DNA of 64,000 bases from an uncultured Flavobacteriales bacterium. Lineage in GTDB: Bacteria; Bacteroidota; Bacteroidia; Flavobacteriales_F; PHOS-HE28. Shown piece by piece: positions 19,037 through 50,268 of the stretch (within the stretch, counting starts at the first letter, position 1; each line of letters begins with the position of its first letter). Both the position numbers and the translations under genes were made by a program. Below the pieces are notes generated by a model. It had not been told where the DNA came from and searched no databases. It was given only the letters and a program-made list of their open reading frames with translations. Location of the stretch: the NCBI GenBank assembly GCA_937872175.1, contig CALMPI010000030.1, forward strand, positions 9,273 through 73,272. Direction: 5' to 3'.

Positions 19037-19105
19037 CGTTCACACGGATCCCACCGACGTTCGCCCGGAGGCCCGTCGTCCGCTCGGTCCGTTGAGGTAG
19101 GTTGC
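19037..19105 (+). promoter_or_regulatory. Putative LytTR direct-repeat operator plus -7 promoter box
   Basis: CGTTCACACG (19037) and CGTTCGCCCG (19058), 21 nt apart; TAGGTTGC at 19098. Confidence 0.6.
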
Positions 19106-19127
19106 TGGTCCATTCAACCTTCTTCCC

Positions 19128-21299
19128 ATGAGACCGCACCGTCTGCTGCTCACCATGGCCATCGCTGCTCCCGTCCTTTCGGGTGCGCAGACCCTGGAGT
19201 GGGCCCACGCCATCGGCGGCAATTCCGCGGACCGCACGTTCAGCGTGGCCGTGGATGATGCCGGCAACGTGCTCACCGTGGGCACCTTCAGCCTGTCGAT
19301 GGACCTCGACCCCGGTCCCGGTGTCTTCACCGTCTCCTCGGTGAGCGATCTGGACGTCTTCATCCGCAAGGTCGATGCCGCCGGCACCTTCCTTTGGGGC
19401 GGCTCCTTCGGAAGCGTTTCGTTCGATGAGGCACGCTCCGTGACCACCGATGCGAACAACAACGTGATCGTCACCGGCCTGTTCCGCGGCACCGTGGACG
19501 TGGACCTGGGCGCCGGCGTCACCACCCTCACCGCCGGCGTGTCCACCGATGCGTTCGTGGTGAAGTACGCAGCAACGGGCGCGCTCCTCTGGGCCCGGCA
19601 GGTGGGAGGCACCATCGCCGACGAGGGCCGTGCCGTGGCCGTGGATGATGCCGGGAATGTGCTCATCACCGGCTTTTTCTCGGGAACCGTGGACCTGGAC
19701 CCCGGCACCGGCGCACAGCCCGCCACGGCCACCGGCTTCCAGGACGTGTTCGTCATGAAGCTCGACCCCTCGGGGAACCTGTTGTGGGCGCATGGCATCG
19801 GTGGGACGGGCACGGATACCGGGAACGGCATCGCCACGGATCCTTCAGGTGCGGTGCTGATCACCGGTCAGTTCCAAGGGACGGTCGACTTCGATCCCGG
19901 CACGGGCACGGCCGCGCTCACCGCGGCCGGGGATCTGGACATGTTCGTGCTGAAGCTCACTTCCAGCGGAGCCCTTGAATGGGCAGGTCGGATCGGTGGC
20001 GCCTTGGTCGACCGCGCCAATCGGATCGCGACGGACCTCAGCGGGGCGTGCTACATCACGGGCGACCTGGAAGGGGACATCGATGTGGACCCCGGGCCCG
20101 CCACCGTCACGGTGTCCCCGGTGGGGTCCATGGACGGTGTGCTCGTGAAGCTGGATGGCAGCGGCGTGTTCCAATGGGCCGTGCACCTGGCCGGCTCCGG
20201 CAGCACCCTGGAGACCTGCGACGATGTGGCCGTTGATCCTGCGGGCCATGTGTATGTCACCGGCCGCGTGGGTTCTCCGATGGACATCGACCCTGGTCCG
20301 GGCAGCACGGTGCTCACCTCCGTGGCCTCCACCGACGTCCTCACCGTCAGCTACACCACCACGGGCACCTTGCGCTGGGGCTTCGCCGTCGGTGGTGCCT
20401 CCATCGATCACGGGCGCGCCATCGCGATCGGTCCCGCCGGCGAGGTGGTGGTGGGGGGTGAGTTCAACACCAGCGTCGACATGGACCCCGGCGCGGCCAC
20501 CACCACGATCGCCGGACCGGGCCAGCACGGGTTCGCTGCGAAGTACGCCCAGCCCGGCTGCAGGCAGGGACTGCTGGCCCTGAAGGTGCTGCTCGAAGGC
20601 CCGTACGACATAGGGACCGGACTGATGGCCGACCCCCTGCGGGCCCTGGGCCTGCTGCCTTTCAACGAACCCTACACGGCCATGGGCCATGCTCCGTCCG
20701 GCGCGCTCTCCACGGCTCCGGGCGTGCTCGCCGTCAGCGGTCCCGATGCGATCGTGGACTGGGTGCTGGTGGAACTGCGCGATCCTGTGCAACCCGCCGT
20801 GGTGGTCGATGCGCGTTCGGCGCTGCTGCAACGCGACGGCGATGTGGTGGACGTGGATGGCAGCTCCCCGGTGTTGTTCTGCGACCAGGACGACGTGCCT
20901 TTCAAGGTGGCCGTACGCCACCGCAATCACCTGGGCGTGATGACCGCGGCGGACCATGTCCTCTCGGGCATCCCGCTGAGCATCGACCTCAGCCTGGGGA
21001 CCACGGCGGTCTTCGGGACCGGTGCCCGGCATACGGTGGGCGGGGTCGAGCTCCTCTGGCAGGGCAATGTGCGCTACGACGGGGTGGTGAAGTACACCGG
21101 GACGAACAACGATCGCGACCCCATCCTCGTGCGTATCGGTGGGCTGGTGCCCACCGCGACCCTCAACGGCTATTGGCCCGAGGATGTGAACATGGACGGC
21201 ACCGTGAAGTACGCCGGGGCCGGCAACGACCGCGACCGTGTGCTGCTCACCATCGGCGGCTCGGTGCCCACGGCCACACGGCCCCAGCAGCTTCCGTGA
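19128..21299 (+). CDS. SBBP-repeat beta-propeller protein with C-terminal dockerin-like (duplicated Ca-binding) region
   Basis: Signal peptide, about 7 propeller repeats, then LKVLLEGPY..DWVLVELRD..RHRNHLG and two DGxVKYxGxxNDRD repeats; no type A CTD. Confidence 0.85.
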   Translation: MRPHRLLLTMAIAAPVLSGAQTLEWAHAIGGNSADRTFSVAVDDAGNVLTVGTFSLSMDLDPGPGVFTVSSVSDLDVFIRKVDAAGTFLWGGSFGSVSFDEARSVTTDANNNVIVTGLFRGTVDVDLGAGVTTLTAGVSTDAFVVKYAATGALLWARQVGGTIADEGRAVAVDDAGNVLITGFFSGTVDLDPGTGAQPATATGFQDVFVMKLDPSGNLLWAHGIGGTGTDTGNGIATDPSGAVLITGQFQGTVDFDPGTGTAALTAAGDLDMFVLKLTSSGALEWAGRIGGALVDRANRIATDLSGACYITGDLEGDIDVDPGPATVTVSPVGSMDGVLVKLDGSGVFQWAVHLAGSGSTLETCDDVAVDPAGHVYVTGRVGSPMDIDPGPGSTVLTSVASTDVLTVSYTTTGTLRWGFAVGGASIDHGRAIAIGPAGEVVVGGEFNTSVDMDPGAATTTIAGPGQHGFAAKYAQPGCRQGLLALKVLLEGPYDIGTGLMADPLRALGLLPFNEPYTAMGHAPSGALSTAPGVLAVSGPDAIVDWVLVELRDPVQPAVVVDARSALLQRDGDVVDVDGSSPVLFCDQDDVPFKVAVRHRNHLGVMTAADHVLSGIPLSIDLSLGTTAVFGTGARHTVGGVELLWQGNVRYDGVVKYTGTNNDRDPILVRIGGLVPTATLNGYWPEDVNMDGTVKYAGAGNDRDRVLLTIGGSVPTATRPQQLP

Positions 21300-21344
21300 C
21301 CGACCCGACCGCTCCGGGACAGCGCTCCTGGCGAACTTGGCACC

Positions 21345-23150
21345 GTGCGCGCCTCGCTCCTTCTCCTCCTTCTCCTGGTCGGCGGGCCGGTCCGGGCCCA
21401 GGTGGACAGCCTGCGCGAGGCGCTGAACGGTGAGACCGTGGACACGCTCCGGCTCGCCATGCTCGACCGGCTGGCGAGCGCCCACCTCTTCAAGGATCCC
21501 GACTCGGCGCTGCACTATGGACAGCGGATGTTCGACCTCGCGGAGGAGCTCGGTGTGGGCTGGCGAAGTGCCAGGGCGCTGAACCTCATGGGCAGGGCCC
21601 ATCACCTGAAAGGCGCCCATGCCCCTGCACTGGCCTGTTTCCACGATGCCCTCCGGAGGTTCGAGCGGTCGGGCAACCGACGTTCGGTGGCCGCCACACG
21701 ATCGAACATCGGCAGCCTCTACACCGACGAGGGCCGACTGGAAAAGGCGATCGAGGCCTATCGCGCTTCGATGGCGGCCTATCACGAGGTGGGTGATGTG
21801 ATCTGGGAGATGGGTGCGGCGTATGGGTTGGCGGAGGTGTATGAGCGGATGGGGGAGGACGACAGTGCACAGGCCCTCTACGGCCGTGCTGCCGATGTGC
21901 TCGCCCGCATCGATGCCCGCGAACATGCCGCGATGGCCCGCCTTGAACAGGCCCGCCTCGTCCTTGGTCTCCATCGCGACTCGCTCGCGGAGGCGTTCTA
22001 CCGCGATGCCCTCGCCCTGTTGGGCGCATCGGACAACGACTTCGCCCGGTGCAGCATCCTGTCCGGCCTCGCCCGTGCCCTGGTGCGACTGGGGCGAGAT
22101 GCGGAGGCGCGTCCCCTTTTCCTTCTGGCGCTCCGGATCGCCGGCCGAAGTGACTTCCGCCAGGAGCTCGCCGACCTTGGCCTGGCGCTCTCCCGGCTCT
22201 GTGAACGCGCCGGCGAACCGGACAGTGCCTTGTCCTATCTGAAGCTGCACCTGCAGTGGAGGGACAGCCTGTTCTCCGCCGAACGGGCACGGGCCATCGT
22301 GGAGGTGCAGGAGCGGTTCGACAGCGAGCGCAAGGATGTGGCGATCGCGCATCAGCAGGCCCTGCTCGATCGCCGCTCCACCCTCATCCGCGTCGTCGCC
22401 GCCGCTGCGGCCATGCTGCTGCTGGCCGCTCTTCTCGCCTGGCGTGCCTACCGCTTGAAGAAACGCACGAGCGATCTTCTCGCCGGCCGGAACGCGCTCA
22501 TCGGAGCCGCCCTCAAGGAAAAGGAGCTGCTGCTCCACGAACTGCATCACCGGGTGAAGAACAACATGCAGACCGTGGGCAGCCTGCTGCGGCTGCAGGC
22601 CCGCGAGGAGTCCGATCAGGGCACCCGCGCCGCACTGCACGAGGCCATGATGCGTGTCAAGAGCCTGGCCCTCGTCCATCAGGACCTGTATCGTGACGCC
22701 TCATTGACCGGCGTGCACATGGACGCCTACATCGGGAAGCTCGCCCGGGGACTGCTCCGCAGCCACGCCATGGACCAGCGCATCGCGCTGGCCCTGGATG
22801 TGCAGCCCGTGCGCCTGCAGGTGGACAGCGCCGTGCCGCTGGGCCTCATCCTCAACGAGCTCATCACCAACGCCCTCAAGCACGCCTTCCCGTCCACCCC
22901 CGGGCGGGGCGCGCACGACGATACGCTTGCCATCGCACTGCGCGACCAAGGCGACCTGCTCGTTCTGGAGGTGCGTGACAACGGCGTGGGTTACCGTGCC
23001 CACAACCCCGCCGGCCCGGACGATGCCCAGCGCCTTTCGGGCACCGGCATCCTGGCCACCTTCGCCGAGACGCTCCGCGCCGAATGGACCGTGCTCAGCA
23101 ACGGGGGCACCACGGTGCGTTTCGCCGTGCGCAACTTCGCCCGTGCCTGA
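21345..23150 (+). CDS. TPR-containing sensor histidine kinase (HisKA_2 type)
   Basis: GTG start, signal/TM, TPR-like helices, TM, ELHHRVKNNMQ, NELITNALKHAF and DNGVG. Confidence 0.92.
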   Translation: MRASLLLLLLLVGGPVRAQVDSLREALNGETVDTLRLAMLDRLASAHLFKDPDSALHYGQRMFDLAEELGVGWRSARALNLMGRAHHLKGAHAPALACFHDALRRFERSGNRRSVAATRSNIGSLYTDEGRLEKAIEAYRASMAAYHEVGDVIWEMGAAYGLAEVYERMGEDDSAQALYGRAADVLARIDAREHAAMARLEQARLVLGLHRDSLAEAFYRDALALLGASDNDFARCSILSGLARALVRLGRDAEARPLFLLALRIAGRSDFRQELADLGLALSRLCERAGEPDSALSYLKLHLQWRDSLFSAERARAIVEVQERFDSERKDVAIAHQQALLDRRSTLIRVVAAAAAMLLLAALLAWRAYRLKKRTSDLLAGRNALIGAALKEKELLLHELHHRVKNNMQTVGSLLRLQAREESDQGTRAALHEAMMRVKSLALVHQDLYRDASLTGVHMDAYIGKLARGLLRSHAMDQRIALALDVQPVRLQVDSAVPLGLILNELITNALKHAFPSTPGRGAHDDTLAIALRDQGDLLVLEVRDNGVGYRAHNPAGPDDAQRLSGTGILATFAETLRAEWTVLSNGGTTVRFAVRNFARA

Positions 23151-23887
23151 TGGACGCCTTGCACCTGGTGATCGTGGAGGACGATGCAGTGATCGCCGCC
23201 GACCTTGCCGCCCTGTTGCACGACCTTGGCCACCGCATCGCCGCCACGTGCCCGGATGCGACCACGGCGCTTCAGGCGATCGCCGTGCATCGGCCGGATC
23301 TTGTCCTGCTGGACATCAACCTTGGCCAGGGGCGCGATGGGGTCCATGTCGCCGACCACCTCAATGCGGTGGAGCAGGTGCCCTTCGTTTTCATCACCGG
23401 GCATACCGACCAGCGCACCCTGGATCGCGTGAAGGCCACCCGGCCCGCCGGCTTCATCATCAAGCCGTTCGACGAGGACGACCTGCGCACCCAGATCGAG
23501 ATCGCCGTTGCGCGCCACGCCGCGCAGGTCGATGTGGGCACCCACCCCGGCGGTGACCGGCAGGGATCACGTAACGCCGAGGTGCTTTTCGTGCGCGACA
23601 AGGGCCGGCTGGCGAAGGTGCCTGTGCAGGAGATCCGCTTCGTGGAGGCCGACAACAACTACGTGGTCATTCATACCGCCGACCGCCGCTACGTGCTCGC
23701 CCGCTCCCTCAATAGCATGGAGGAGCACCTGGCGTCGTCCCATTTCGTGCGCATCCATCGCCGCTACCTGGTCGACGTTCGGCGCATCACCGCGCTGCGC
23801 GAACGGGAGGCCCTGCTCGGCGATGTCGTTCTTCCCGTTGGCAAGACGCACAAGGAGGCGCTTCGCCTGCGCTGGGAGCAACGATGA
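23150..23887 (+). CDS. REC-LytTR response regulator
   Basis: TGATG coupling to the kinase; VEDD, LLDINL, FIIKPF, FVRDKG, EADNNY and RIHRRYLV motifs. Confidence 0.94.
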   Translation: MDALHLVIVEDDAVIAADLAALLHDLGHRIAATCPDATTALQAIAVHRPDLVLLDINLGQGRDGVHVADHLNAVEQVPFVFITGHTDQRTLDRVKATRPAGFIIKPFDEDDLRTQIEIAVARHAAQVDVGTHPGGDRQGSRNAEVLFVRDKGRLAKVPVQEIRFVEADNNYVVIHTADRRYVLARSLNSMEEHLASSHFVRIHRRYLVDVRRITALREREALLGDVVLPVGKTHKEALRLRWEQR

Positions 23888-24001
23888 TCATATGCACCTG
23901 CACAATCGTGGCCGCACGCGCGCGGTCCTTGGATGCGGTCGGGTCCCGCTCAACATCCCGACGCGGTGGGCTGAAGGAGGGCCGCGGGTGATCACGCTTC
24001 A

Positions 24002-24373
24002 GGCACCACCATCCGGAGCCCGCTGGCCAGCGGCATCCTCAGTGGCAAGCATGTGCTGGAGGGCGATACCTCGTCGCGGCTGCGCATGGCCGGGCTGGAT
24101 CGGCTGAAGGAGCGCGAGCTGAACGAGGCGCGCTTGCGGAAGGTGAACGAGCGGAAGGCCATCGCAACTGAACTGGGTCTTTGGTTGCCCGTGTTCGCCA
24201 TCGCCCGGTGCCTGAAGAACGCGCGCGTGAGCATGGTGATGCTCGGCGCCGGCAAGGTGCCGCTGCTGAAGGAGAACATGAAGGCCGCGGAGGCGCAGGA
24301 CCTGCTGACCCCCGAGGTGCTGGCCCAGGTGGAAGGCACGCGGGCGGGGGAGAAGCTCAGCACGTGGACCTGA
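24002..24373 (+). pseudogene. Degenerate duplicate of the 3' third of the aldo/keto reductase gene (direct repeat of 18658-19029)
   Basis: Ungapped 372-nt match with about 48 mismatches by hand count; lacks the 5' two-thirds; three Trp codons changed TGG to CGG. Confidence 0.9.
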
Positions 24374-24490
24374 GCCCGCCCGGGCGACGCCCTCGGGCGG
24401 ACATGGACAGGTGTGCGCCCGCCCCTGGAGCACGCGATCTGCCCGGCTTGATGACCCAGGTACTGATGAGATGACCGAACTTGCGCAGCC

Positions 24491-25231
24491 ATGACGGCCG
24501 TCCGCATCCTTATCGTTGAAGATGAACCGCTCATCGCGGAGGACCTGCGTGCGCACCTGGAGGAGCTGGGCTACGAAGTGGCCGCCGCGTGCGACAATGC
24601 CCTGGATGCCATGGCGGAGATCGCCGCCGCAGCGCCTGACCTGCTGCTGCTGGACATCAACCTGGGCGATGGGGCGGATGGCGTGCAGCTGGCCGAGAAG
24701 GTGAGCGCGAAGCACCGCGTGCCCTTCATCTTCGTCACCAGCCACAGCGACAAGGCCACGCTCGACCGTGTGAAACCCCTGCGACCGGCGGGATTCATCA
24801 TCAAGCCCTTCGACGAGAACGACCTGCGCGCGCAGATCGAGCTGGCGCTTGCCCGGTTCGCCAACGATGTGGAGGCGACCGCGGCGCCCACCGAAGCACA
24901 GCGCAACGAGTTCGTGATCGCCGACAGCATCTTCATCCGCGAGAAGGGCAAGCTCGTGAAGGTGGCCATGGATGACATCCACTACGCCGAGGCGGACGAC
25001 AATTACGTGACGCTCTTCACGCCCGCGAGGAAGTATGTGATCACCAGCACGCTCGCGGCGGTCGAACGGAAGCTCGGGAGCGTGCACCACCTCCGCATCC
25101 ACCGCAGCTACCTGGTGGACACGCGCCGCATCACCGCTGTGGAGGATGGCTATGTGCGCCTCGGGGCGCTGAGCCTGCCCGTGGGCAAGACCCACCGCGA
25201 GGCGCTGATGGCCCGGATCAGGACCTTGTGA
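24491..25231 (+). CDS. Orphan REC-LytTR response regulator
   Basis: VEDE, LLDINLG, FIIKPFDE, FIREKG, EADDNY and RIHRSYLV motifs; no adjacent kinase. Confidence 0.95.
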   Translation: MTAVRILIVEDEPLIAEDLRAHLEELGYEVAAACDNALDAMAEIAAAAPDLLLLDINLGDGADGVQLAEKVSAKHRVPFIFVTSHSDKATLDRVKPLRPAGFIIKPFDENDLRAQIELALARFANDVEATAAPTEAQRNEFVIADSIFIREKGKLVKVAMDDIHYAEADDNYVTLFTPARKYVITSTLAAVERKLGSVHHLRIHRSYLVDTRRITAVEDGYVRLGALSLPVGKTHREALMARIRTL

Positions 25232-25283
25232 CGCTCACCCGGCCCATGGGCCTGTTGACGTGATCGTGCTCGTCCTTGACCGG
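25232..25283 (+). promoter_or_regulatory. Possible degenerate LytTR repeat pair
   Basis: CGCTCACCCG (25232) and TGTTGACGTG (25253) at 21-nt spacing; CGTCCTTGACCGG (25271) recurs exactly at 50140. Confidence 0.35.
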
Positions 25284-25338
25284 ATCGGGGCCCGGAGACG
25301 TTTCCGCGAAGGCTTGCTTGCGGCCAAACCTCCGACCC

Positions 25339-26973: not shown

Positions 26974-27019
26974 GCGGTCGCGGACCGGTAGGGACGGAAC
27001 CTTGGCGCCGGTCCTCTGA

Positions 27020-27088
27020 CGTTCACCCGATCAGGGGAGGCGTTCACCCGATCGAAAGGCTGTTCGCGCCCGCGATCCCGGACGTTCG
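27020..27088 (+). promoter_or_regulatory. Putative LytTR direct-repeat operator
   Basis: CGTTCACCCGATC exactly repeated at 27020 and 27041; TGTTCGCGCC at 27061; GACGTTCG at 27081. Confidence 0.65.
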
Positions 27089-27097
27089 TGGTGCCCC

Positions 27098-28435
27098 ATG
27101 TCCACCACCATGCGCGATCGGCTCCTGCTCCTGCTTGCTGTGCTCGGCCTCGCCGTGCTTGCGGTCCACGCCCAGCCATCCGATGCCCAGATCATCAAGG
27201 ACCTCACCAAACCCGGTGTGCTCAAGGTGGAGCTTGCGCCCGGTCCCACGACGAAGGAGTGGCACAGCGCGCATGGACAGTACATGTGGGACCGTGTGGC
27301 GTACGTCACGCGGAACGCCGGGGTGGCCGAGTATCCGGAGGCCACGGTGAAGATCACCGGGATCGCCCGCTACCACTATGGGGCCAGCACCAGCTTCCGG
27401 GAGTTCAAGGTGGCGGAGAACGAGTACTTCGGCCTGCCGGCCCCCCGCAAGGACGAGATGCTCGGGATGATCCGCGAGCGCTACCTGCAATTCCTCGGAC
27501 ACCGCGCGGGCAAGATGGTCGGCGACCTGCACTACCTGCGCATCCCCGAAGGCGAGGGCGTCATCTGGCATACGCCGCTCTCGTTCACCATACCGGTGGA
27601 GGTCGAGTACGACGCCAAGACCAGCAACGTGCACCTCACCACCATCCGGGAGAAGATCGATACCCGCTTCTACCGCGATGCCGTGAACGCGCCGTGGAAG
27701 GAGAACATCGTCTCCATCGGGCGCGACCGCACCGAAGGCGGGCAGCGCACGTTCCCTGTGGAGGAGCTCCGGGCCATGCCCACGTTCCGCGACCAGCTGG
27801 AGGAGCAGCAGGCGCGCACCGAGCTGGCCGCCCTCGGCGAGGTGAGCATCCCTGAGTTCAAGAGCGACATGGAGGTGTTCCTGCATACGCACAAGCTTCT
27901 GCGGGAGAGCAACGCCACGGAGTTCGAGGCGTACCTTATGCGCATGCTCGCGCCATCCCATTTCGTGGAGGGCAGCGCCACGCGGCTCACACCGCAAGGT
28001 GCCGAGCTGATCAACAGGGCCGTGGCCGCCGCGTTCGGCGGAAAGAGCACGTACGCCGAGCAGTACTGCCCCGATCCCGGTGTGAAGCACCGGCAGCAGG
28101 ACGCCATCGAGATCTGGAACGCCACGCAGGACAAGCATACCCGCATGCACATCGGTCGGTTCGGCGGCGGCTGGAAGAACGGGCAGAAGGTGGGCGAACA
28201 GTACAAGTTCATCGCCCTCGAGGTGTGGATGTGGACCGACGCGGACAACATCGCACGCATCCGCAGCTATGAACCCGGCATGCTGTGCAAGCCGCTGGGA
28301 GCGGTCGGATCGTCCGCTGAGAAGGCGGGTGCGCCCTCCCCGGAACCGACCTCGGGCGGAGGCTCCCAGCAGGGCTCGGGCAACGAACTGATGAAGAAGG
28401 GAAAAGGACTCCTGAACAAACTCACCACCCCATGA
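27098..28435 (+). CDS. Hypothetical secreted protein
   Basis: Clear signal peptide (LLLLLAVLGLAVLAVHA-QPSD), host-like codon usage, overlaps the next gene by 4 nt. No family recognised. Confidence 0.8.
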   Translation: MSTTMRDRLLLLLAVLGLAVLAVHAQPSDAQIIKDLTKPGVLKVELAPGPTTKEWHSAHGQYMWDRVAYVTRNAGVAEYPEATVKITGIARYHYGASTSFREFKVAENEYFGLPAPRKDEMLGMIRERYLQFLGHRAGKMVGDLHYLRIPEGEGVIWHTPLSFTIPVEVEYDAKTSNVHLTTIREKIDTRFYRDAVNAPWKENIVSIGRDRTEGGQRTFPVEELRAMPTFRDQLEEQQARTELAALGEVSIPEFKSDMEVFLHTHKLLRESNATEFEAYLMRMLAPSHFVEGSATRLTPQGAELINRAVAAAFGGKSTYAEQYCPDPGVKHRQQDAIEIWNATQDKHTRMHIGRFGGGWKNGQKVGEQYKFIALEVWMWTDADNIARIRSYEPGMLCKPLGAVGSSAEKAGAPSPEPTSGGGSQQGSGNELMKKGKGLLNKLTTP

Positions 28436-30279
28436 GGCACCTCTCCGCATTGCTCGCCCTCCTGTGCGCACCACTGTTCTCCATCGCGCAGCTCACGGGC
28501 ACCAGGACCGTTGGCGGGACCAGCCCGGACTACGCCACCATCACCGCTGCGGTGGACGCGCTCATGAGCCAGGGCGCCACGGGCAACGTCACCTTCAATA
28601 TCCGACCCGGCACCTACACGGGCCAGTACGTGGTAGGACCTGTACCTGGCGCTCCAGGCACCATCACCTTCCGCAACGAAACGAACGGCGCACAAGCGGT
28701 GAACCTCGAATACGATGCCAACAGCACCACCGACAACTTCATCTTTCGCCTCGAAGGCGCGCAAGGCGTGGTGCTGGAGAAGCTCACCTTCCGTCCGCTC
28801 GACTACGACCACGCACGGGCCGTGCATTTCATCAACGGGCTCACCGGGCTCACCATCGAGCAGTGCGTCTTCCACGGCAGCACCAACCCATCGGGTTCGG
28901 CCTCCTTCGAACGCATCCTGGTGCATTGCGATCAGTTCACCATCAACACGGACAACAACCCGCAGGATGTGCTGATCCTGGACAACAGCTTCTTCAACGG
29001 CAATACCGCGATCGAGCTCGATGCCTATGGCTTCAATGGCGCGCGCAGCGCGGGACTGATCATCAGCGGCAACGAGTTCCGCCAGCAGGTGGGCACGGGC
29101 ATCCGCCTCAACCATTGCATCGGTTCGATCGGCGACAATGCCTTCAGCACCACGGTGGGTAATTGGTACGTGGGCATCCGCACCACCTTCTTCGACGGCG
29201 GAAGCCAGATCCGCCGGAACGACATCCAGGCCTACGCCACCAACGGCTGCACGGGCATCGAGGTGGGCAACACGCAGAGCACCACCGGCAACATGATCAG
29301 CAACAACATGGTGTACGTGAACGGCACCGGCGATGTATGGGGCCTGGCCGTGTACAACCTGTGGGACATGAAGATCGTGCACAACAGCGTGCTGGTGGCC
29401 GCGGGCAACCAGTTCCAGAGCTACGCCTTCCACCACCTGAGCAACTTCCCCGATGGGCAGGACGCATTGGTGCGGAACAACATCTTCGCCAACAATGCCG
29501 GTGGCTACGCCTACTACGTCCCGGTGGCGGCGAACGTGGCCATCGAGGATCACAACGACCTGTTCACCACCGGCAGCACCATCAGCAATGTAGCGGGCAA
29601 CGAGTACCTCACCATCCCGGCGCACCAGGCTGGCACGGGGCAGGGAGCGGGCGATACGGACATCGATCCCGTGTTCCCCATCCAGCCCGATCTTCACCTG
29701 AACAACTGCGCCATGGACAGCATGGGCGAATACTTCTTCGTGGTGGCGAGCGATATCGATGGTGATGCACGCGGCAACCCCTTGTGCGACATGGGTGCCG
29801 ATGAGTACACCGCGAGCACCAATGCGATGCAGGCCCCCACCATCACCATCCTCAGCAGCGACCTGCCCTACCAGCTGGGACTGGGCGCATCGTTCAATGC
29901 CTACCAATGGAGCACCGGGGACAACACGCCCACCACCACGATCACCGCCGGAGGCACCTACAGTTGCGATGTGCTGGACGCCAACTTCTGTTCGTTCAGC
30001 ATCAACATCACGGTGGTGGTGAACATCAATACCGGGGTCGCGGAGGCCGCCAATCCGGATGCGGTGCTGTTCCCAAACCCCGCGATGGAGACGATCACCG
30101 TGAGCGGTGCTGCTGCCGGAGCGGCCTACACACTGATCGACGCCAGTGGCCGTGTGCTGCGCGAAGGCCGTTTACCGACGACCGCGATGCTCGATGTGCG
30201 CGACCTGTCGCCCGGCGTGCATGTGCTGCGGCTGTTGGATGGCGGGTCCGTTCGCACCGCCCGCTTCGTGAAGCAGTAA
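28432..30279 (+). CDS. Secreted right-handed beta-helix protein with T9SS CTD
   Basis: QLTGTRTVGG..PDYATI.AA..AL...G..GNV.F.IRPGTY; beta-helix rungs; DMGADE; LFPNPA CTD ending RFVKQ. Confidence 0.87.
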   Translation: MRHLSALLALLCAPLFSIAQLTGTRTVGGTSPDYATITAAVDALMSQGATGNVTFNIRPGTYTGQYVVGPVPGAPGTITFRNETNGAQAVNLEYDANSTTDNFIFRLEGAQGVVLEKLTFRPLDYDHARAVHFINGLTGLTIEQCVFHGSTNPSGSASFERILVHCDQFTINTDNNPQDVLILDNSFFNGNTAIELDAYGFNGARSAGLIISGNEFRQQVGTGIRLNHCIGSIGDNAFSTTVGNWYVGIRTTFFDGGSQIRRNDIQAYATNGCTGIEVGNTQSTTGNMISNNMVYVNGTGDVWGLAVYNLWDMKIVHNSVLVAAGNQFQSYAFHHLSNFPDGQDALVRNNIFANNAGGYAYYVPVAANVAIEDHNDLFTTGSTISNVAGNEYLTIPAHQAGTGQGAGDTDIDPVFPIQPDLHLNNCAMDSMGEYFFVVASDIDGDARGNPLCDMGADEYTASTNAMQAPTITILSSDLPYQLGLGASFNAYQWSTGDNTPTTTITAGGTYSCDVLDANFCSFSINITVVVNINTGVAEAANPDAVLFPNPAMETITVSGAAAGAAYTLIDASGRVLREGRLPTTAMLDVRDLSPGVHVLRLLDGGSVRTARFVKQ

Positions 30280-30281
30280 GC

Positions 30282-30599
30282 ATGCGAGCCGATGCGGTCT
30301 TCGTGCGCGACGGGTCACAGCATGTGCGGCTCCCGGTGAGCGACATCCTGTTCATCGAGGCGGACGATAATAGCACGCATGAACACACCTCGCAGCGCCG
30401 CTATACCGTGCCGCGTATGCTGAAGGATGTGCTCGATGAGCTCCCGCCAGGGCGAGTGGAGCGCATACACCGCAGCTATGCCGTGAACCTCGATCGCGTG
30501 AAGGCCGTCAGTGACAAAGGCATGCATGTGGGCGACCGGTGGCTGCCCATCGGTAGGAGCTTCCGCGATGAGGTGAGGAAACGGTTGTGGCTGCTGTGA
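30282..30599 (+). CDS. Stand-alone LytTR DNA-binding domain protein
   Basis: AVFVRDG...RLPVSDILFIEADDN..RIHRSYAVN...LPIGRSFR; no receiver domain; ATG 2 nt after the upstream stop. Confidence 0.8.
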   Translation: MRADAVFVRDGSQHVRLPVSDILFIEADDNSTHEHTSQRRYTVPRMLKDVLDELPPGRVERIHRSYAVNLDRVKAVSDKGMHVGDRWLPIGRSFRDEVRKRLWLL

Positions 30600-30605
30600 G
30601 GGCGC

Positions 30606-31574: not shown

Positions 31575-31608
31575 GACGGGGCCGAATGGATCGATCTTGA
31601 TCGACGTG

Positions 31609-38480: not shown

Positions 38481-38500
38481 ACGAGTATTTCCTCCGAGTG

Positions 38501-41040: not shown

Positions 41041-41256
41041 CACGCATGCATATGTTGATGCCGGACGCTAGCAGTGCCGCGAACGCCAAGATCATAGCGC
41101 CGACCTTGAATTCCGCACTGCGGATCGTCACCTTCGGGATGAGGTTCTTGCCGCATCGCTCGGCGATCCGCGTGCGAAGGCATGCCGAGAATGAACAACC
41201 AGATCGGAACACATACCGCTTCCAATAGGTATTCCGGCCTGCTCTGCTGAACGTGA

Positions 41257-44200: not shown

Positions 44201-44391
44201 TCGAGCCCATCCTGCGTGCCGAACCATAGGAAGCCGTGGTGGTCCTGTACGATCGCGTTCACCGAGTTCTGTGAAAGGCCGTTGGCGATGGTGAGGTGAT
44301 GGAAGATGCCCGCAGCGGCGTGCGCGAACGCGGCGTGTGCCAGGACCGACAGGGCGATGCTAAGGGCAAGCCGCGTCTTTCGTCCCGACAT
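41257..44391 (-). CDS. Two-component sensor kinase with Reg_prop beta-propeller, Y_Y_Y and HisKA_3 domains
   Basis: GLSQNSV..QDHHGFLWFGTQDGL repeats, LDPGEYVLRVQGSN, PPW.TW, DFHDESG, KEAMNNCAKHA and DDGKGF; start 44391 or 44409. Confidence 0.93.
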   Translation of the reverse strand: MSGRKTRLALSIALSVLAHAAFAHAAAGIFHHLTIANGLSQNSVNAIVQDHHGFLWFGTQDGLDRFDGRSVLSYRHSDRSNSLANNYIWSLLEDADGGLWVGTFGGGLDRLDPATGMISNHRRGSGLSGDRVVGLLEHPAGTLWVRTSTGLDRIDRATGTVTQVLKDVFVKGDLIGAMAPGDEDHLLLRTSVGLSALDFRTGGLRTISPGTEVTALARVGEATYMLDRHRLVRIDPANGAEELLVVAGSVRGADPRTGFHCMLIHNGHAWVGTTHGLIHRDPQGRVTLHRHDPNDPRSLADDHVLSLHAGKGGEIWVGTRNGLDRIDQVEPVVHGLPHVPGDPVSLPHASVTCLLEDGDKLWIGSPAGLSIWDRSNATVKVHRNNPRDPRSLSADYVLSLARNAQGEILVGTLGGGVQVVRGEAPSPRFHRIVAAASTDPQRSAIVHGLHTARDGRTWIATGGAGLCSIGADGVVTCSPATGEGAAPHPYLFTVMEDDAGFLWMGSAGGGLLLFDPMSNRFGAVRRSPEDMGSLSDDLVLCTYLDEGKHLWVGTANGLCRTRRPLNDSLRNVIMAGHAPEGIFNRYGRSIGLPNEVVYGILADGDRLWLSTNGGLAQLDRRTGTVVRTLARSDGLLGEEFNQNAYLRAADGTLYFGGPQGLNWFAPEELVSNRVAPPVRITRFLLNNEAVPLRCSGATGFALARAVHALERIDLSWREKVIGFEFAALNFIAPERNRYRYTLEGFDEDWTEAGSRSSVTYTNLDPGEYVLRVQGSNNDGVWNEEGATLALTISAPPWRTWYAYAFYALVLVALGYAWYRYRLREATRELQTGLRIAEARSLEREDFRRRSAADFHDESGAKLTRIGLHTGLAKQRTSSDPATAAHLEHIEQAQRELSAGIRDLIWSMDPGRDTLLDVLDRLSAFALTLFDRTETRFQLEGRNDTMKDVKLHMEQRRAITLIMKEAMNNCAKHADAEHCTLAVQHDAGRILFRLKDDGKGFDPAAAKPDSYGARTMPERAKGIGAELEFSSAPGTGTEVRLRIHV

Positions 44392-44479
44392 GGCGATCGC
44401 ATGGTTCATGTCTCAAAGGAAGGGAGATCACCTCGCGCAGGCATCGTGCGGAACAGGTCGCATTTCCGCAACTTGCGCC

Positions 44480-46264
44480 ATGCGCTTCCCCATCCTGGCT
44501 GTGTTGTTGATCGCTGCGCAGGCCCACGCCCAGCTTGACAGCCTGCTGCGCGTGCGCGACGCACTGGCGCGGGACACATCGCGCCTGCCCGTGCTCACCG
44601 AGCTGTTGAGGGCGACCGTGTTCAACGACCCGGACAGCGCACTCGTCTTTGCCCGGGAGTACAGGGCCATCGCCGAGCGGAGCGGGATCGACCTCGAGAT
44701 CGGCAAAGGGCACAACTACACGGGCATGTGCCATACGAGCCTCAGCGACCATGACAACGCGCTCCGGCACTACCTGGCCGCGTTGACCCATTTCGAACGC
44801 GGAGGCGACCCCTGGTACACGGCCATGGCGCACAACAACATCGGCACCGTGCACGAGAAGCTGCGCCGCTTCGACAAGGCGGCGGCCGAGTATGAGATGG
44901 CCTTGAAGGGGTTCCGGAGCATCCCGGATTCCGTGTGGATGGCGAACGTGTCCAACAACATGGGGAACATCCTTTACGAACAGAGGGGATTCGACCGGTC
45001 CGTGGCGTACTACCGGCAGGCGGACACGATCCTGACCGCCCTGGGGTTCGATCGCTATGCCGCCACCACGCGGATGAACCTGGCCAACGCCTTGGACGAG
45101 CTTGGGCGGAGCGCGGAGGCACTGGACATCCTGCGGAGCGCCATGGCCATCATGCCCGTGGGCGAGGATGAGAACACCCGGGCCAACATGCTGGCCGACC
45201 TCGGGCGCCTGCATGGCAAAGCAGGCGATCAGGACAGTGCGCTGCTGCACATGCGCGAGGGTCTTGCGCTGGCCACCGCGGTGCAGGCCGGCGATGTGCA
45301 GGCGAACGCCCACGAGTTCCTCAGCGCGTGGTTCGAGGAACGGGGCCGGCTGGACTCGGCCCTCTTCCACTTCAAGCGGGCCACCGCGTTGCACGACACC
45401 ATCCTGGGCGCTGAACGAAGCGCGCAGGTCGCCGAGATGCAGGAGAAGTATGAGAGCGGAAGGAAGGACGCGCTCATCGCGGAGAACAGGGCGCAGCTCG
45501 AACGCCGGGCCCTCACCATCAAGGCCATAGCCGCAGGGGCCCTGCTGCTGCTCGGGGTCGCGCTCTTCGCCTACCGGGCCTATCGCCTCAAGCGGAAGGG
45601 CGAACGCGAGGTGATGGCCCAGAAGAAGGTGATCGAGGCGCAGTTGATGGAGAAGGAACTGCTGCTGCGCGAGATCCATCACCGTGTGAAGAACAACCTG
45701 CAGACCGTGAGCAGTCTGCTCAGCATCCAGGGCCGCGGGATCACCGACGCCAGGGCGAAGGAGGCGGTGAACGACAGCCGCCTGCGCGTGAAGAGCATGG
45801 CGCTCATCCACCAGGACCTCTATCGCGAGGGCGACCTCACCGGCGTGGCGATGCCGGCCTATGTGGAGAAGCTCGTCCACGGCCTGATCACCAGCTACGG
45901 CATGACCGGTCGCGTGCGCGCCGATCTGCGCGTGGCACCGGTGAGCCTGGACGTGGACACCGCCGTGCCGATCGGGCTCATCCTGAACGAGCTCGTCACC
46001 AACGCGCTCAAGTATGCCTGGCCCGATGCTCGAACGGGCGTGCTGTCCATCGTTGTGCAGGAGACCGACGGGGCGTTGGTGGTGGAGGTGGCCGATGATG
46101 GCGTGGGCGTCGCCGATCCGGAGACGATCTCCGCGGACGGAACGGGCTTCGGACTGGGCATGATCCGCACGTTCGCCAACAAGCTCAAGGCGGAGCACAG
46201 CATCAGCGGGGCGCGTGGCACCACGGTGCGGCTCGTTGTGCGCAACTACACGCGCACCGGCTGA
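44480..46264 (+). CDS. Orphan TPR-containing sensor histidine kinase (HisKA_2 type)
   Basis: Signal peptide, canonical TPRs (AMAHNNIG.., MANVSNNMG..), TM, EIHHRVKNNLQ, NELVTNALKY, DDGVG and GFGL; no adjacent regulator. Confidence 0.93.
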   Translation: MRFPILAVLLIAAQAHAQLDSLLRVRDALARDTSRLPVLTELLRATVFNDPDSALVFAREYRAIAERSGIDLEIGKGHNYTGMCHTSLSDHDNALRHYLAALTHFERGGDPWYTAMAHNNIGTVHEKLRRFDKAAAEYEMALKGFRSIPDSVWMANVSNNMGNILYEQRGFDRSVAYYRQADTILTALGFDRYAATTRMNLANALDELGRSAEALDILRSAMAIMPVGEDENTRANMLADLGRLHGKAGDQDSALLHMREGLALATAVQAGDVQANAHEFLSAWFEERGRLDSALFHFKRATALHDTILGAERSAQVAEMQEKYESGRKDALIAENRAQLERRALTIKAIAAGALLLLGVALFAYRAYRLKRKGEREVMAQKKVIEAQLMEKELLLREIHHRVKNNLQTVSSLLSIQGRGITDARAKEAVNDSRLRVKSMALIHQDLYREGDLTGVAMPAYVEKLVHGLITSYGMTGRVRADLRVAPVSLDVDTAVPIGLILNELVTNALKYAWPDARTGVLSIVVQETDGALVVEVADDGVGVADPETISADGTGFGLGMIRTFANKLKAEHSISGARGTTVRLVVRNYTRTG

Positions 46265-46275
46265 CGGGGCACGGA

Positions 46276-46345
46276 CGTTCACCCGCCGGTGGGCCGCGTT
46301 CACCCGATCGGGCTGGACCGCTGGCGACGGCTTCGGGGATCTTGC
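46276..46345 (+). promoter_or_regulatory. Putative LytTR direct-repeat operator plus -7-like box
   Basis: CGTTCACCCG at 46276 and 46297 (the latter CGTTCACCCGATC, identical to 27020 and 27041); GATCTTGC at 46338. Confidence 0.65.
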
Positions 46346-46363
46346 AGGGTCCATCCCTTCGCC

Positions 46364-49300
46364 ATGTCCCGCCCCTGTCGCCCCCTGTCCGTCGCTGTGC
46401 TGCTTTCCGCCTGCACCCCTGCGCTGGCACAGCTCAGTGGCACGTACACCATCGACGGGAGCGGAGCCGGCGATTACCTCTCCTTCGGCGCGGCCATCGA
46501 TGACCTGAACGCGCTTGGTGTGAACGGCCCGGTGCTGTTCGAGGTGACCGACGGATCTTACTCCGGCCGTGCGACCATCGGGGCGGTGGCCGGTGTGTCC
46601 GCCGTGAACACGGTGACCTTCCGCGGGCAAAGCCTCGACAGCTCGTTGGTGACCTGGAGCGAGGCCAGCTACACCTCCATCCCCTCGCTGGGCCACAACA
46701 GCCTGCTGCGCCTGGACGGTGCCCGGTACATCACACTGGAGCACATGACCCTGCAACGCACGGGCACCGACCAGTATGCGCACGTGGTGGTGATCGACGG
46801 GTCCACGGCACATGTCACCGTGCGGCACTGCAGGCTGCGCGGCCCCACGAACTTCACCGCCGCGGTGCAGGACCGCAACGTGATCCACTGCGCCAGCGGC
46901 ACCGTGCAGGCGGACATCCGGTTCGAGGCCGATCGCATCGAGCATGGCAACCATGGCCTCTATTGGTGGGCCACTGCGGGCGAGGCCGATGAAGTGAGCC
47001 TGGAGGGCTGCGATCTCCACGAGGCGCGCGTGTGGTTCCAAGGGATCACCGGACAGGTGCATTTGCTGGGCAACACCTCCTTCCACACCCAGGCAGCGAA
47101 TTGTGTGACCGCCCTGAGCCTGAGCGGGGATGTGGACATCAGCCGCAACACGCTGCGCTCCGTTGGGCTCTACACCACCCTGGCCCTGCAGCAGCTCGCC
47201 GGGACAGCTGCCCAGCCCATCCGAGTGGCGAACAACATGGTGATCGGGAGCAACAGCACCGTGAGCCTGGTGTTCTGTGACCGGGTTGATCTGTTGCACA
47301 ACAGCGTGTCGGGTGCAGGCAACATCTCCAATGGGAACACGGCCATCCGGATGTTGAACAACAGCTGGTACCGCGACCTGGGCTACGCGCTCACCGTGGG
47401 TGCCACGGCCACCGTGATCGCTTCGGACCACAACTGCTACCACACGGTGTCCGGTGCCGCCGTCAGCTGGTCCGGTGGCCACACGGCCCAGGCCTCCCTT
47501 ACGGCAGCCACCGGTCTCGACGCCAACAGCCTCTTCATGGACCCGGTCTACGTGGACCCGCTCACCGACCTCCACATCCAAACCACCTCCCCTTGCAGTG
47601 GCACGGGGACGCTCGCGGCGGGCGTGACCGATGATCGGGATGCGGAGCTGCGACCGCGCCCCGCGCTGAGCGACCCGGACATCGGAGCGGATGAAACGGA
47701 CGAGTACTGCTTCACCCTCAACGGGACCTACACCATCGGCCCGTCCGTCGGTGCGGACTTCCCCACGTTCAGCGCGGCCGTGCTGAAGCTGAGCATCTGC
47801 GGCATCACCGGGCCGGTCCTCTTCCTGGTGGAGGACGGGGTGTACACCGAGGCCATCAGCCTGCCGGCCATCACCGGGACGTCCTCCACCAACACGGTGA
47901 CCTTCCGCGGCAATGGGGCGGACAGCACGGCGGTCACCCTGCGCTATCCCGCCACGGCCACCTCAGCGCCCATCGATCACGTGGTGCGCATGGAGGGCGC
48001 CGATCACGTGGCCTTCGAGCGCATCACCCTGGAGCGGTACGGCGTGGCGTCCTATGGGACCATCTTCCGCTTCCGTTCCGGTGGTGGCACGCCCAACGAC
48101 CCCTCCACGCACATCCGCTTCACCGGCTGCCGTTTCCTGCGCACGGGTGCGATCGGCTTCAACAGCGTGATGGTCAGCGCGGCCAATTCCCCGGCCCTCA
48201 ACGAAGTGGGTACGGTCTTCGAGGGGAACTACTTCAACGGTGGGGTCTATGCGTTCGGGAACCCGGGCAATGCGGGGGATGAGTGGACCATCACGAACAA
48301 TGTGGTCGAGAACGTGCAAGGTGGCATCACCGTGTTCCAGGCTTCGTCCGTCACCATTTCCGGGAACCGGGTCACCATGCTCGGGAACAGCCTGTTCCCG
48401 GCCATCAAGGTGACCTGCGGCTGCGATGCGGCGATCGATGACAACCGGGTGCTGACCAGGGGGACCGCCCTGGAGCTCACCGTGGCCGCCACCGCCGGTG
48501 CTCCGGCCTGGGTCACGAACAACACCCTCATTTCGGACCTGTTCGCCGGGCACGCCCTGCGGATCCTCGGCCTGAACAACCACGTTCGGATCGTGCACAA
48601 CTCCGTGAGCGCATACTCCGGCCGCGCGCTGTTCGCGAGCGCCGCCGCTGGTTCGTCGGACCTCTGGCTGCTGAACAACATCCTGGCGAGCCGCTTCAGC
48701 CATCCGCTGGATGCCCCCTCCGGGGCCGCGTTCAGCGACGTGCGCCACAACCTGCTGCAGAAGGCGGCCAGCACCCTGGCCACGTGGAACGGCGCCTCCG
48801 TCACCACCCTGACCGCGCTGCAGTCCGTGAGCGGCATGTTCGCCAACAGCTTCGCCGGCGCTTCCTGCTATTTCGATCCAGCGAGCGACCTCCACTCCTA
48901 CAGCATGGAGGCCGATGGCGCCGCACTGCCCTTCGCCCTCTTCCCCACGGACATGGATGGCGAGCCGCGGAGCACCACCACACCGGACATCGGCGCGGAT
49001 GAGTTCCAACCGCAATTGTGGTCGGCCACCGATGATCTCTGCGTGCCCGCCGACCCCATCACGAGCACCGGCACGGGTACCGACCAATGGATCTACAAGG
49101 ACCGCAAGGTGGTGGCGCGCTTCAACGACAACGGGCAGCCCCTGGGGATCGTGCAGTTCGGCGTGTTCCTCAACAGCGGTCCGGTGCGCCAGAGCCTCAT
49201 CGGCCAGCACTACCTGGACCGCAACTGGCACTTCACCACCTCCCTGCCCATGTCCGGCACCGCCATCGTCCGGCTCTTCCACAGCGCCGATGAGTTCGCC

Positions 49301-50068
49301 GACTATGCCGCGGCCGACCCCGTGGTGAACGTGTATGCCGATGCCGGCGTGGCCCACTACGCCGGGCCCATGGAGGACTGCGCGCTGCTGAACAACCCGG
49401 CCGGCAACGTGTGGATGCCCACCTTCCCGGCATCCCCTGCGCTGGAGCCGCGCATACAGTCCACCGGTGGCACCCATGGCTACACCGCCCTGCTCGGCGC
49501 CGACGGCGAGCTCTACATCACCATCATGGGTGCTCCGCTGCCCGTCGAACTCCTCACCTTCACCGGACATCGCATCAACGAGCGCGAAGTGCGGCTCGAC
49601 TGGTCCACCGCCACCGAGCACAACAACGCGGGCTTCGAAGTGTGGCGCATGATCGAGGGCGAGGACGACTTCACCGAAGTGGGCTGGGTGGACGGCGAGG
49701 GCGACAGCCAGCAGCGCACGGACTACATCCATGTGGATGCGAACGCCACCGGCCGCCAGAGCTACTACAAGCTCAGGCAGGTGGATCATGATGGGCAGCA
49801 GGTGTGGACGGCCGTGGTGCCGGTGGCGGGTGCGCAGGCCGGCGCGCAGCTGGTGGCGTATCCGAACCCGGCCACGGACCACGTGCGGGTGGAGGGAGCG
49901 ACCGGCGAAGCACGCATGGCGCTCTTCGATGCCGCGGGCCGCATGGTGCGTGGATGGTCACCGGCGCCCCGCATCGACGGCCTGGCCGGGCTGCACCGCG
50001 GCTGCTACACCCTGGTCGTGGAGCGCGCGCCCGGGGCGAGGAGCGTGCTGCGCGTCATGCTGCAGTGA
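46364..50068 (+). CDS. Large secreted protein with two tandem beta-helix modules, PLPVEL/FN3-like domain and T9SS CTD
   Basis: Two modules, each starting L.GTYTI and ending DIGADE; PLPVELLTF..LDWSTATEHNN.GFEV; YPNPA CTD. Confidence 0.88.
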   Translation: MSRPCRPLSVAVLLSACTPALAQLSGTYTIDGSGAGDYLSFGAAIDDLNALGVNGPVLFEVTDGSYSGRATIGAVAGVSAVNTVTFRGQSLDSSLVTWSEASYTSIPSLGHNSLLRLDGARYITLEHMTLQRTGTDQYAHVVVIDGSTAHVTVRHCRLRGPTNFTAAVQDRNVIHCASGTVQADIRFEADRIEHGNHGLYWWATAGEADEVSLEGCDLHEARVWFQGITGQVHLLGNTSFHTQAANCVTALSLSGDVDISRNTLRSVGLYTTLALQQLAGTAAQPIRVANNMVIGSNSTVSLVFCDRVDLLHNSVSGAGNISNGNTAIRMLNNSWYRDLGYALTVGATATVIASDHNCYHTVSGAAVSWSGGHTAQASLTAATGLDANSLFMDPVYVDPLTDLHIQTTSPCSGTGTLAAGVTDDRDAELRPRPALSDPDIGADETDEYCFTLNGTYTIGPSVGADFPTFSAAVLKLSICGITGPVLFLVEDGVYTEAISLPAITGTSSTNTVTFRGNGADSTAVTLRYPATATSAPIDHVVRMEGADHVAFERITLERYGVASYGTIFRFRSGGGTPNDPSTHIRFTGCRFLRTGAIGFNSVMVSAANSPALNEVGTVFEGNYFNGGVYAFGNPGNAGDEWTITNNVVENVQGGITVFQASSVTISGNRVTMLGNSLFPAIKVTCGCDAAIDDNRVLTRGTALELTVAATAGAPAWVTNNTLISDLFAGHALRILGLNNHVRIVHNSVSAYSGRALFASAAAGSSDLWLLNNILASRFSHPLDAPSGAAFSDVRHNLLQKAASTLATWNGASVTTLTALQSVSGMFANSFAGASCYFDPASDLHSYSMEADGAALPFALFPTDMDGEPRSTTTPDIGADEFQPQLWSATDDLCVPADPITSTGTGTDQWIYKDRKVVARFNDNGQPLGIVQFGVFLNSGPVRQSLIGQHYLDRNWHFTTSLPMSGTAIVRLFHSADEFADYAAADPVVNVYADAGVAHYAGPMEDCALLNNPAGNVWMPTFPASPALEPRIQSTGGTHGYTALLGADGELYITIMGAPLPVELLTFTGHRINEREVRLDWSTATEHNNAGFEVWRMIEGEDDFTEVGWVDGEGDSQQRTDYIHVDANATGRQSYYKLRQVDHDGQQVWTAVVPVAGAQAGAQLVAYPNPATDHVRVEGATGEARMALFDAAGRMVRGWSPAPRIDGLAGLHRGCYTLVVERAPGARSVLRVMLQ

Positions 50069-50198
50069 CGGTGGCCCCCCGACGGAGGCTGTGCGGGCGC
50101 CGCGCGCGATGCATCGATCGCGGCAGCGGCCTCGAAGCGCGTCCTTGACCGGTGCGTTCCTTTGTCCGGGCCGGTCTTCACAGGCCTTCATGGGCGGC

Positions 50199-50268
50199 CG
50201 TTCGGCCCGATCGCCTGGTCGTTCACCCCAGATCGCGCACGCCGTTCGCGGCGGCCTGTTTAGGTTGC
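50199..50268 (+). promoter_or_regulatory. Putative LytTR direct-repeat operator plus -7 promoter box
   Basis: CGTTCGGCCC (50199), CGTTCACCCC (50220) and CGTTCGCGGC (50243); TAGGTTGC at 50261. Confidence 0.6.

Follow-up and report, generated by a model that had tools for sequence, protein, structure and literature searches.

The 64,000-nt stretch of contig CALMPI010000030.1 analyzed here (the window; 65.6% G+C), from an uncultured Flavobacteriales bacterium, carries a strictly phased direct repeat ahead of genes for secreted proteins and encodes several regulators with a LytTR domain. We conclude, with a probability of about 0.8, that this repeat pair, CGTTCACCC-N12-CGTTCACCC(GATC), hereafter the dyad, is the operator of the local LytTR proteins, namely the REC-LytTR regulators encoded at 23150, 24491, and 54299 and probably the LytTR-only protein encoded at 30282, and that it serves an activator-type mechanism; the case is built from sequence comparison. 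LytTR regulators dimerize on 9-bp direct repeats separated by a 12-bp spacer, or 10+11 in SilA (PMC2766830, citing Nikolskaya & Galperin 2002), and the sites described here combine two repeats of about 9 bp, a 12-bp spacer giving a 21-bp period, and a LytTR gene in the locus.

An earlier note on this DNA had described four repeat pairs, each exactly 21 nt apart, and had found CGTTCACCCGATC to be identical at 27020, 27041, and 46297; both observations hold at these coordinates. Synteny mapping sorts the sites of the window and its relatives into three orthologous classes: class A sites lie directly after the stop of a 24491-type regulator gene and before the 27098 orthologue, class B sites directly after a LytTR-only gene and before the gene for a large beta-helix protein, and class C sites before SBBP-kinase-regulator operons. 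The sites in the window are as follows.

19037..19070, plus strand: operator 1, class C, imperfect; repeat pair 19037/19058 (CGTTCACACG / CGTTCGCCCG), arranged as CGTTCACAC-N12-CGTTCGCCCGGAG, 8 nt after the stop of an aldo/keto reductase gene
27020..27053, plus strand: operator 2, class A, perfect; repeat pair 27020/27041 (both CGTTCACCCGATC), arranged as CGTTCACCCGATC-N8-CGTTCACCCGATC, directly after a TGA stop
46276..46318, plus strand: operator 3, class B, perfect; repeat pair 46276/46297 (CGTTCACCCG / CGTTCACCCGATC), arranged as CGTTCACCC-N12-CGTTCACCCGATC and followed by GCTGGAC at 46312-46318
50199..50232, plus strand: operator 4, class C, imperfect; repeat pair 50199/50220 (CGTTCGGCCC / CGTTCACCCC), arranged as CGTTCGGCC-N12-CGTTCACCCCAGA
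25232..25282, plus strand: degenerate operator; CGCTCACCC at 25232, TGTTGACGT at 25253, and CCTTGACCG at 25274, in 21-nt steps, before the ATG at 25339 of a gene for a type IX secretion system (T9SS) beta-helix protein

These sites are far more frequent in the window than expected. The pattern CGTTC-N16-CGTTC matches four times, at 19037, 27020, 46276, and 50199, against 0.09 matches expected, and none of 100 shuffles reaches four; a looser pattern matches seven times (0.28 expected), and CGTTCACCCG with at most one mismatch occurs 18 times (7.3 expected). All four dyads lie on the plus strand in short intergenic gaps, where they start 0-12 nt past the stop codon of the preceding plus-strand gene, and each is followed by a gene for a signal-peptide protein whose ATG is 57-72 nt away; GGGTGAACG is the form that CGTTCACCC takes when read as its reverse complement. 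Generic 21-nt periodicity was rejected as evidence. Many 9-of-10 matches at 21 nt fall inside coding regions because 21 is a multiple of 3; our case accordingly depends on the word itself and not just on its period. A weaker pair that had been suggested at 25232/25253 does exist, but it is poor, with one and four mismatches in its units (CGCTCACCC / TGTTGACGT), and falls below the threshold of the position weight matrix; it may continue as the third degenerate unit CCTTGACCG at 25274. In relatives a perfect operator directly follows the stop of the 24491-type regulator gene, and three related loci (L021, L084, and L097) have a perfect dyad where the window has the degenerate one.

Conservation among relatives carries most of the argument. 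Searching one-genome-per-species contigs with the three regulators yielded 76 loci, from which the genome of the window itself is absent, the best regulator match being 82%; about 36 of the 76 belong to high-GC uncultured Flavobacteriales metagenome-assembled genomes (MAGs), mostly from wastewater or activated sludge. Among the sequencing runs searched, wastewater DNA runs contain parts of the window, and no RNA run contains it. The dyad CGTTCACCC-N12-CGTTCACCCGATC is found at orthologous positions in about 30 loci of related uncultured Flavobacteriales MAGs and lies on the strand of the regulator in most of the approximately 36 high-GC loci; among the 40 low-GC or distant loci it was found in none. 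Repeats and distances are constant among the relatives while the spacer varies. A consensus and an information profile built from 47 nonredundant sites define the operator as CGTTCACCC-N12-CGTTCACCCGATC, with the 9-mer CGTTCACCC and its 12-nt spacer as the conserved core: every site has two copies of the 9-mer, whose columns are each kept in 42-47 of the 47 sites, and the promoter-proximal repeat carries a GATC tail, whereas the spacer and the stretch after repeat 2 are uninformative. The phasing is equally strict. With at most three mismatches allowed per pair, 53 pairs on the strand of the regulator are spaced by 21 nt, against about 1.4 for each of the remaining spacings between 12 and 40 nt and three at 21 nt on the opposite strand; a separate count of unit pairs gives 41 at 21 nt. 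In nearly all related sites, the ATG of a long open reading frame (ORF) follows 64-72 nt after repeat 2. The canonical 9+12 layout and the orthologous conservation with strict 21-nt phasing and strand thus favor the proposal, first made in the earlier note, that the dyad is a LytTR operator.

The GATC tail is itself a Dam/DpnII-type site, present at 27029-27032, 27050-27053, and 46306-46309 and in most related sites; in class C the GATC lies one base further out (CGTTCNNNCNGATC).

Loci fetched with the regulator are biased towards the regulator, and a metagenome contig collection was therefore scanned for exact CGTTCACCC-N12-CGTTCACCCGATC without this anchor. Twenty-three contigs contain the exact dyad, and in 20 of them a 24491-type regulator gene, a LytTR-only gene, and/or orthologous cargo lies beside it; the remaining three (L099, L092, and L096) are not counted as support, the context of L092 and L096 being ambiguous. 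In L099, a 21-nt tandem repeat at 6480-6700 (CGTTCACCCGATCCCTGAGCC and variants), in a probable coding region of an organism with 71% GC, contains the 13-mer by chance, a warning for scans of this kind. The scan thus finds the dyad almost exclusively beside LytTR genes or their cargo, in support of its assignment to LytTR loci. In three contigs (L083, L086, and L088) the upstream neighbor is on the other strand while the dyad remains at its usual distance from the downstream gene, from which it follows that the dyad is part of the downstream promoter rather than of the upstream gene's end.

Downstream of the repeats, the profile of the 47 sites contains a second conserved block, A-nn-TT-n-G at +41..+47, in which A at +41 is kept in 34 sites, T at +44 in 36, T at +45 in 46, and G at +47 in 34; an A-rich patch follows at +55/56. 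The earlier note had placed boxes of this kind 40-41 nt after repeat 2, and all four are indeed there, at 40, 40, 41, and 41 nt counted from where that repeat starts.

19098..19105, plus strand: -7-like box TAGGTTGC, TAnnTTGY type; predicted transcription start about 19110; ATG 19128
27081..27088, plus strand: -7-like box GACGTTCG (class A consensus cAAGTTCGt); predicted start about 27093; ATG 27098 or 27110
46338..46345, plus strand: -7-like box GATCTTGC (class B consensus GGnAnTTGC); predicted start about 46350; ATG 46364
50261..50268, plus strand: -7-like box TAGGTTGC; predicted start about 50273; ATG 50292

The sigma-A -7 box of Flavobacterium psychrophilum, TAnnTTTG, spans -12 to -5, a position also taken by a TAnnTTGY variant ('SM5') (PMC9723704). 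The equation of our boxes with the Bacteroidota element TAnnTTTG stands in part: the block 40-41 nt downstream is conserved and fits, but what is kept is nAnnTT(n)G only, the leading T being present in 9 of 47 sites and the third T in 16. Two flavors of box can be told apart, CAAGTTCG vs TAGGTTGC/GGAAnTTGC; class A boxes (cAAGTTCGt) resemble TAnnTTTG, and those of classes B and C (GGAAnTTGC, TAGGTTGC, and TAGCTTGT) resemble TAnnTTGY. If the box is set as -12..-5, transcription would start at about 19110, 27093, 46350, and 50273 with leaders of 14-19 nt, and the repeats would fall at about -73..-65 and -52..-40, with a weak -33-like cTG directly downstream of them. Provided that the A-nn-TT-n-G block is the -7 box, repeats that abut the -33 region from upstream would have activator geometry.

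Two observations concern individual promoters. The sequence GCTGGAC immediately after the GATC tail recurs in most of 13 class B sites (exactly in 10 of 13) and is absent from classes A and C; its copy at 46312-46318 is probably a class-specific -33 region. The gene at 27098 has two in-frame ATGs, at 27098 and 27110, of which the first would leave a leader of about 5 nt, and its orthologues start MR.R...; since the usual distance of the ATG from repeat 2 is 64-72 nt, the start at 27110 is more likely.

Pfam and NCBIfam scans of the ORFs give the operators a consistent setting and bear out the view that the genes around them encode kinases of the TPR-HisKA_2 type, a 105-aa LytTR-only protein, and three REC-LytTR paralogs.

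19128..23887, plus strand: putative autoregulated operon 1 (Pfam, sequence, kinase topology, and synteny with L001/L002)
19128-21299, plus strand: secreted SBBP beta-propeller
21345-23150, plus strand: TPR-HisKA_2 kinase
23150-23887, plus strand: REC-LytTR regulator, joined to the kinase gene by TGATG coupling
23975-24373, plus strand: 3' fragment (truncated copy) of a reductase gene, between the 23150 and 24491 regulators
24491..25231, plus strand: REC-LytTR regulator with predicted phospho-acceptor D55
Between the degenerate operator at 25232 and the operator at 27020, plus strand: beta-helix protein with a T9SS C-terminal domain (CTD)
27098..30599, plus strand: target operon, its gene order conserved in more than 15 loci
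From 27098, plus strand: secreted 445-aa protein, family not assigned
28432-30279, plus strand: T9SS type-A CTD protein
30282-30599, plus strand: 105-aa LytTR-only protein
44306..46264, plus strand: TPR-HisKA_2 sensor kinase without an adjacent regulator gene
46364-50068, plus strand: 1234-aa secreted beta-helix protein
50292..55006, plus strand: putative autoregulated operon 2 (Pfam, sequence, and synteny)
50292-52475, plus strand: SBBP propeller
52476-54299, plus strand: TPR-HisKA_2 kinase
54299-55006, plus strand: REC-LytTR regulator

The products of 23150, 24491, 54299, and 30282 all contain the LytTR domain (PF04397). Identity among the three REC-LytTR paralogues is 50-52%, and EAD-NYV, R-HR-YLV, and PVG-TH motifs are invariant in this domain of all three; the 24491 regulator matches the NCBIfam models for BtsR and LytR with scores under the respective cut-offs, and the LytTR-only protein shows a weak alignment with the LytTR domains of 3D6W and AgrA (3BS1). 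Each kinase has a predicted topology of signal peptide, periplasmic TPR region of about 330 residues, one transmembrane helix, and cytoplasmic HisKA_2/HATPase core; the core is closest to PhyK-like kinases, and the sensor part is weakly FimS-like. The orphan kinase at 44306 finds its best match (72%) in the L015 kinase that follows a LytTR-only gene. The cargo proteins start with signal peptides. The label of the aldo/keto reductase-like gene before 19037 derives from the truncated copy at 23975-24373, the full-length ORF having no Pfam match.

Several neighboring arrangements differ from those of the relatives. There, the order is reductase-kinase-regulator, with a TPR-HisKA_2 kinase of its own ahead of the 24491-type regulator; in the window this regulator is preceded by the reductase 3' fragment and a propeller-kinase-regulator cassette and has no adjacent kinase. 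At 30603-30611, 4 nt past the stop of the LytTR-only gene, the window has CGCTCACCG where relatives have a perfect class B operator, and in both the window and L010 a minus-strand OmpA-family gene abuts the end of the LytTR-only gene in place of that operator; CGCTCACCG looks like a relic half-site left by rearrangement. A fifth LytTR regulator, at 10238-10984, is paired with a TPR-His_kinase (PF06580) sensor. The region at 10985-11072 upstream of the SBBP gene at 11073 is rich in different repeats (GCCTCGATCGG...CACGCCGATCGG, with a box GTATTTCG), contains no CGTTCACCC dyad, and is probably a separate operator.

Poor core elements together with a dimer site abutting them from upstream are the hallmark of an activator-dependent promoter, and because the promoters described here would combine the two, we propose an activator mechanism. 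We posit that the periplasmic TPR kinase phosphorylates its regulator at the predicted acceptor D55 and that two regulator protomers would then bind the repeats head to tail, two turns apart on one face of the helix. The bound dimer could recruit sigma-A RNA polymerase to an otherwise poor promoter and thereby turn on the gene downstream, which encodes a secreted and often T9SS-sorted protein; the mRNA would have a short leader of about 14-19 nt. Operators 19037 and 50199, which precede propeller-kinase-regulator operons, would provide positive autoregulation, whereas 27020 and 46276 would drive cargo operons.

Some observations weigh against this proposal. The sites in related MAGs are phylogenetically nonindependent, and because the scans cover the window and the loci of its relatives, sites may also exist before unrelated genes elsewhere in the genome. 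The promoter elements themselves are faint: the -33 element is barely visible, as a weak cTG at +16..18, and the -7 box matches TAnnTTTG weakly. Metatranscriptome contigs that map to the relative L021 are short, few, and too sparse for placing starts, and one of them crosses each operator, through possible read-through or DNA carry-over. Lastly, about 8 of 18 class A sites have a third degenerate unit 20 nt after repeat 2, the others having unrelated sequence in that place. In the window it is TGTTCGCGC at 27061-27069, overlapping the predicted -33/spacer region of operator 2, and in L011, L024, and L028 it is, for example, GGCGTTCAC; a unit in this position could mean repression or a more complex occupancy.

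That the operator is real but its LytTR proteins repress or compete, for instance through a LytTR-only protein, an unphosphorylated regulator, or a third unit that blocks the promoter, strikes us as unlikely. The third unit over the predicted -33/spacer region points in this direction, as does the LytTR-only gene, which stands last in an operator-driven operon in more than 12 loci and would suit a feedback role. Yet both of the strongly conserved units are located entirely upstream of the core promoter, whose elements are poor in the manner of activator-dependent promoters, and the third unit is absent from classes B and C and from many class A sites; moreover, the characterized LytTR regulators with the same layout are activators (PMC2766830). 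We regard it as still harder to believe that some other DNA-binding protein or an alternative sigma factor recognizes the repeats, their linkage to LytTR genes being mere synteny. Binding of the dyad by LytTR proteins is a prediction, NarL-type regulators are also encoded in the window, and the boxes of classes B and C match TAnnTTGY, which in F. psychrophilum is attributed to a nonconsensus promoter class; against this, no DNA-binding proteins other than those with a LytTR domain are found with the dyad consistently from locus to locus, and direct 9+12 repeats are a LytTR signature, whereas NarL/GerE proteins use inverted repeats. A promoter of the extracytoplasmic function (ECF) sigma type made of the repeats themselves was rejected: it requires a conserved block at the -10/-35 distance, and no -10-like block is conserved at the right distance from either repeat.

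Because dyads begin 0-12 nt past the preceding stop, at the boundaries of modules that are rearranged between genomes, they might instead be recombination or cassette-junction scars from the duplication and shuffling of cargo-kinase-regulator cassettes, or else an RNA-level element in read-through transcripts, but we find either scarcely credible. Scars would not account for the fixed distance to the ATG and to the -7-like box, for the strict orientation, or for a sequence that is conserved while the flanks diverge; a change of upstream neighbor leaves the dyad in place before its downstream gene, and no recombinase gene was found among the window ORFs by the Pfam and NCBIfam scans. An RNA element was rejected as well, there being no Rfam match and leader folding being unremarkable (z = +0.87, -0.79, +1.11, and +0.47).

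The operator classes differ systematically in sequence. Perfect sites make up 28 of 31 in classes A and B and none of 12 in class C, whereas the CGTTCG unit occurs in 8 of the 12 class C sites and in none of the 31 others (Fisher p about 3e-6 and 3e-8 for these two contrasts, the sites being phylogenetically nonindependent). Orthologous sites retain the particular variants: the units of 19037 recur at the orthologous site in L001 and L002, and L006 and L035, which share the variant of 50199, have CGTTCGGCCCGATCGCCCTGTCGTTCACCCCGAT at the site orthologous to it. There are two readings: a preference of the cassette regulators for a slightly different word, with partial insulation as a result, or autoregulatory sites that are kept weak. 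The idea of cross-talk among the paralogs, raised together with the repeats, is thereby qualified: CGTTCG and the imperfect units set class C apart from classes A and B.

One could go further and replace the single shared operator with a network in which paralogous LytTR regulators are arranged in tiers and partly insulated from one another, an arrangement that we consider possible but doubtful. Here the imperfect CGTTCG-type sites of class C would be read mainly by the regulator of their own cassette and the perfect CGTTCACCC by the 24491-type regulator, the LytTR-only protein would act on the next operator in a feed-forward or feedback loop, and the TPR sensors would detect the secreted cargo or its tail. 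The class B operator does start a few bases after the LytTR-only stop in more than 10 genomes. If this network exists, periplasmic TPR sensing of the cargo or its tail would amount to self-monitored secretion, by analogy with PorA and PorXY.

In the distant low-GC homologue loci (L037-L065 and L067), no CGTTC dyad was found. A screen of these loci for pairs of GTT-containing 10-mers with 20-22-nt spacing gave scattered lineage-specific hints, e.g., GTTTTGTATG, which occurs twice at 21-nt spacing at about 1784 in L048, 10821 in L057, and 2950 (minus strand) in L061, on the opposite strand and immediately past the regulator gene. These three loci are from Chitinophagaceae MAGs whose regulators are 30-31% identical to those of the window, and the GTTTTGTATG pairs are possibly an operator, specific to that lineage, for regulators of the same family.

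Pairs of a TPR-sensor kinase and a LytTR regulator are very common in Bacteroidota, and our literature searches found no defined LytTR operator or regulon in this phylum. The dyad offers a precise, conserved binding-site prediction with defined targets, i.e., secreted beta-propeller and beta-helix proteins and T9SS cargo, together with predicted starts, and makes a signaling system testable in an uncultured activated-sludge lineage of Flavobacteriales. If our proposal is correct, it also shows how a LytTR activator is placed on the unusual -33/-7 promoter of Bacteroidota.

The closest parallels are the boxes of AgrA (agr P2/P3 in Staphylococcus aureus), ComE, BlpR, PlnC, and SilA, which are likewise imperfect direct repeats of 9-10 bp with an 11-12-bp spacer, a 21-bp period, and a GTT core. 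These Firmicutes boxes lie just upstream of the core promoter, where they are bound by a REC-LytTR dimer, and the same placement is predicted here; one of the operons driven from AgrA-type boxes encodes the system itself. The differences are in the promoter, which here is of the Bacteroidota -33/-7 type, in the GC-rich word CGTTCACCC, and in the targets, T9SS or secreted beta-propeller and beta-helix proteins. The sensors differ too, the HisKA_2 kinase with a periplasmic TPR sensor standing in place of the polytopic HPK10 receptor of agr, and no AgrB/AgrD- or ComC/ComAB-like genes were found among the window ORFs, which sets the system apart from agr-like peptide quorum sensing. Among Gram-negative bacteria, AlgR of Pseudomonas aeruginosa is also a LytTR regulator, and the core CGTTCG of its consensus CCGTTCGTC is the class C variant of our sites, but AlgR sites are mostly single 9-mers, variable and often distant, in contrast to the strictly phased 21-bp pair abutting the promoter. 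The YpdA/YpdB and BtsS/BtsR systems of Escherichia coli (targets yhjX and yjiY) resemble ours in pairing a Gram-negative REC-LytTR regulator with paired direct repeats and the activation of one or a few promoters; their sensors YpdA and BtsS are of the 5TM-LytS/His_kinase (PF06580) type, whereas those of the window are TPR-HisKA_2 proteins. By all these comparisons, the architecture appears to be that of a textbook LytTR switch, and what would be new is its operator in this bacterial group, with class-specific variants.

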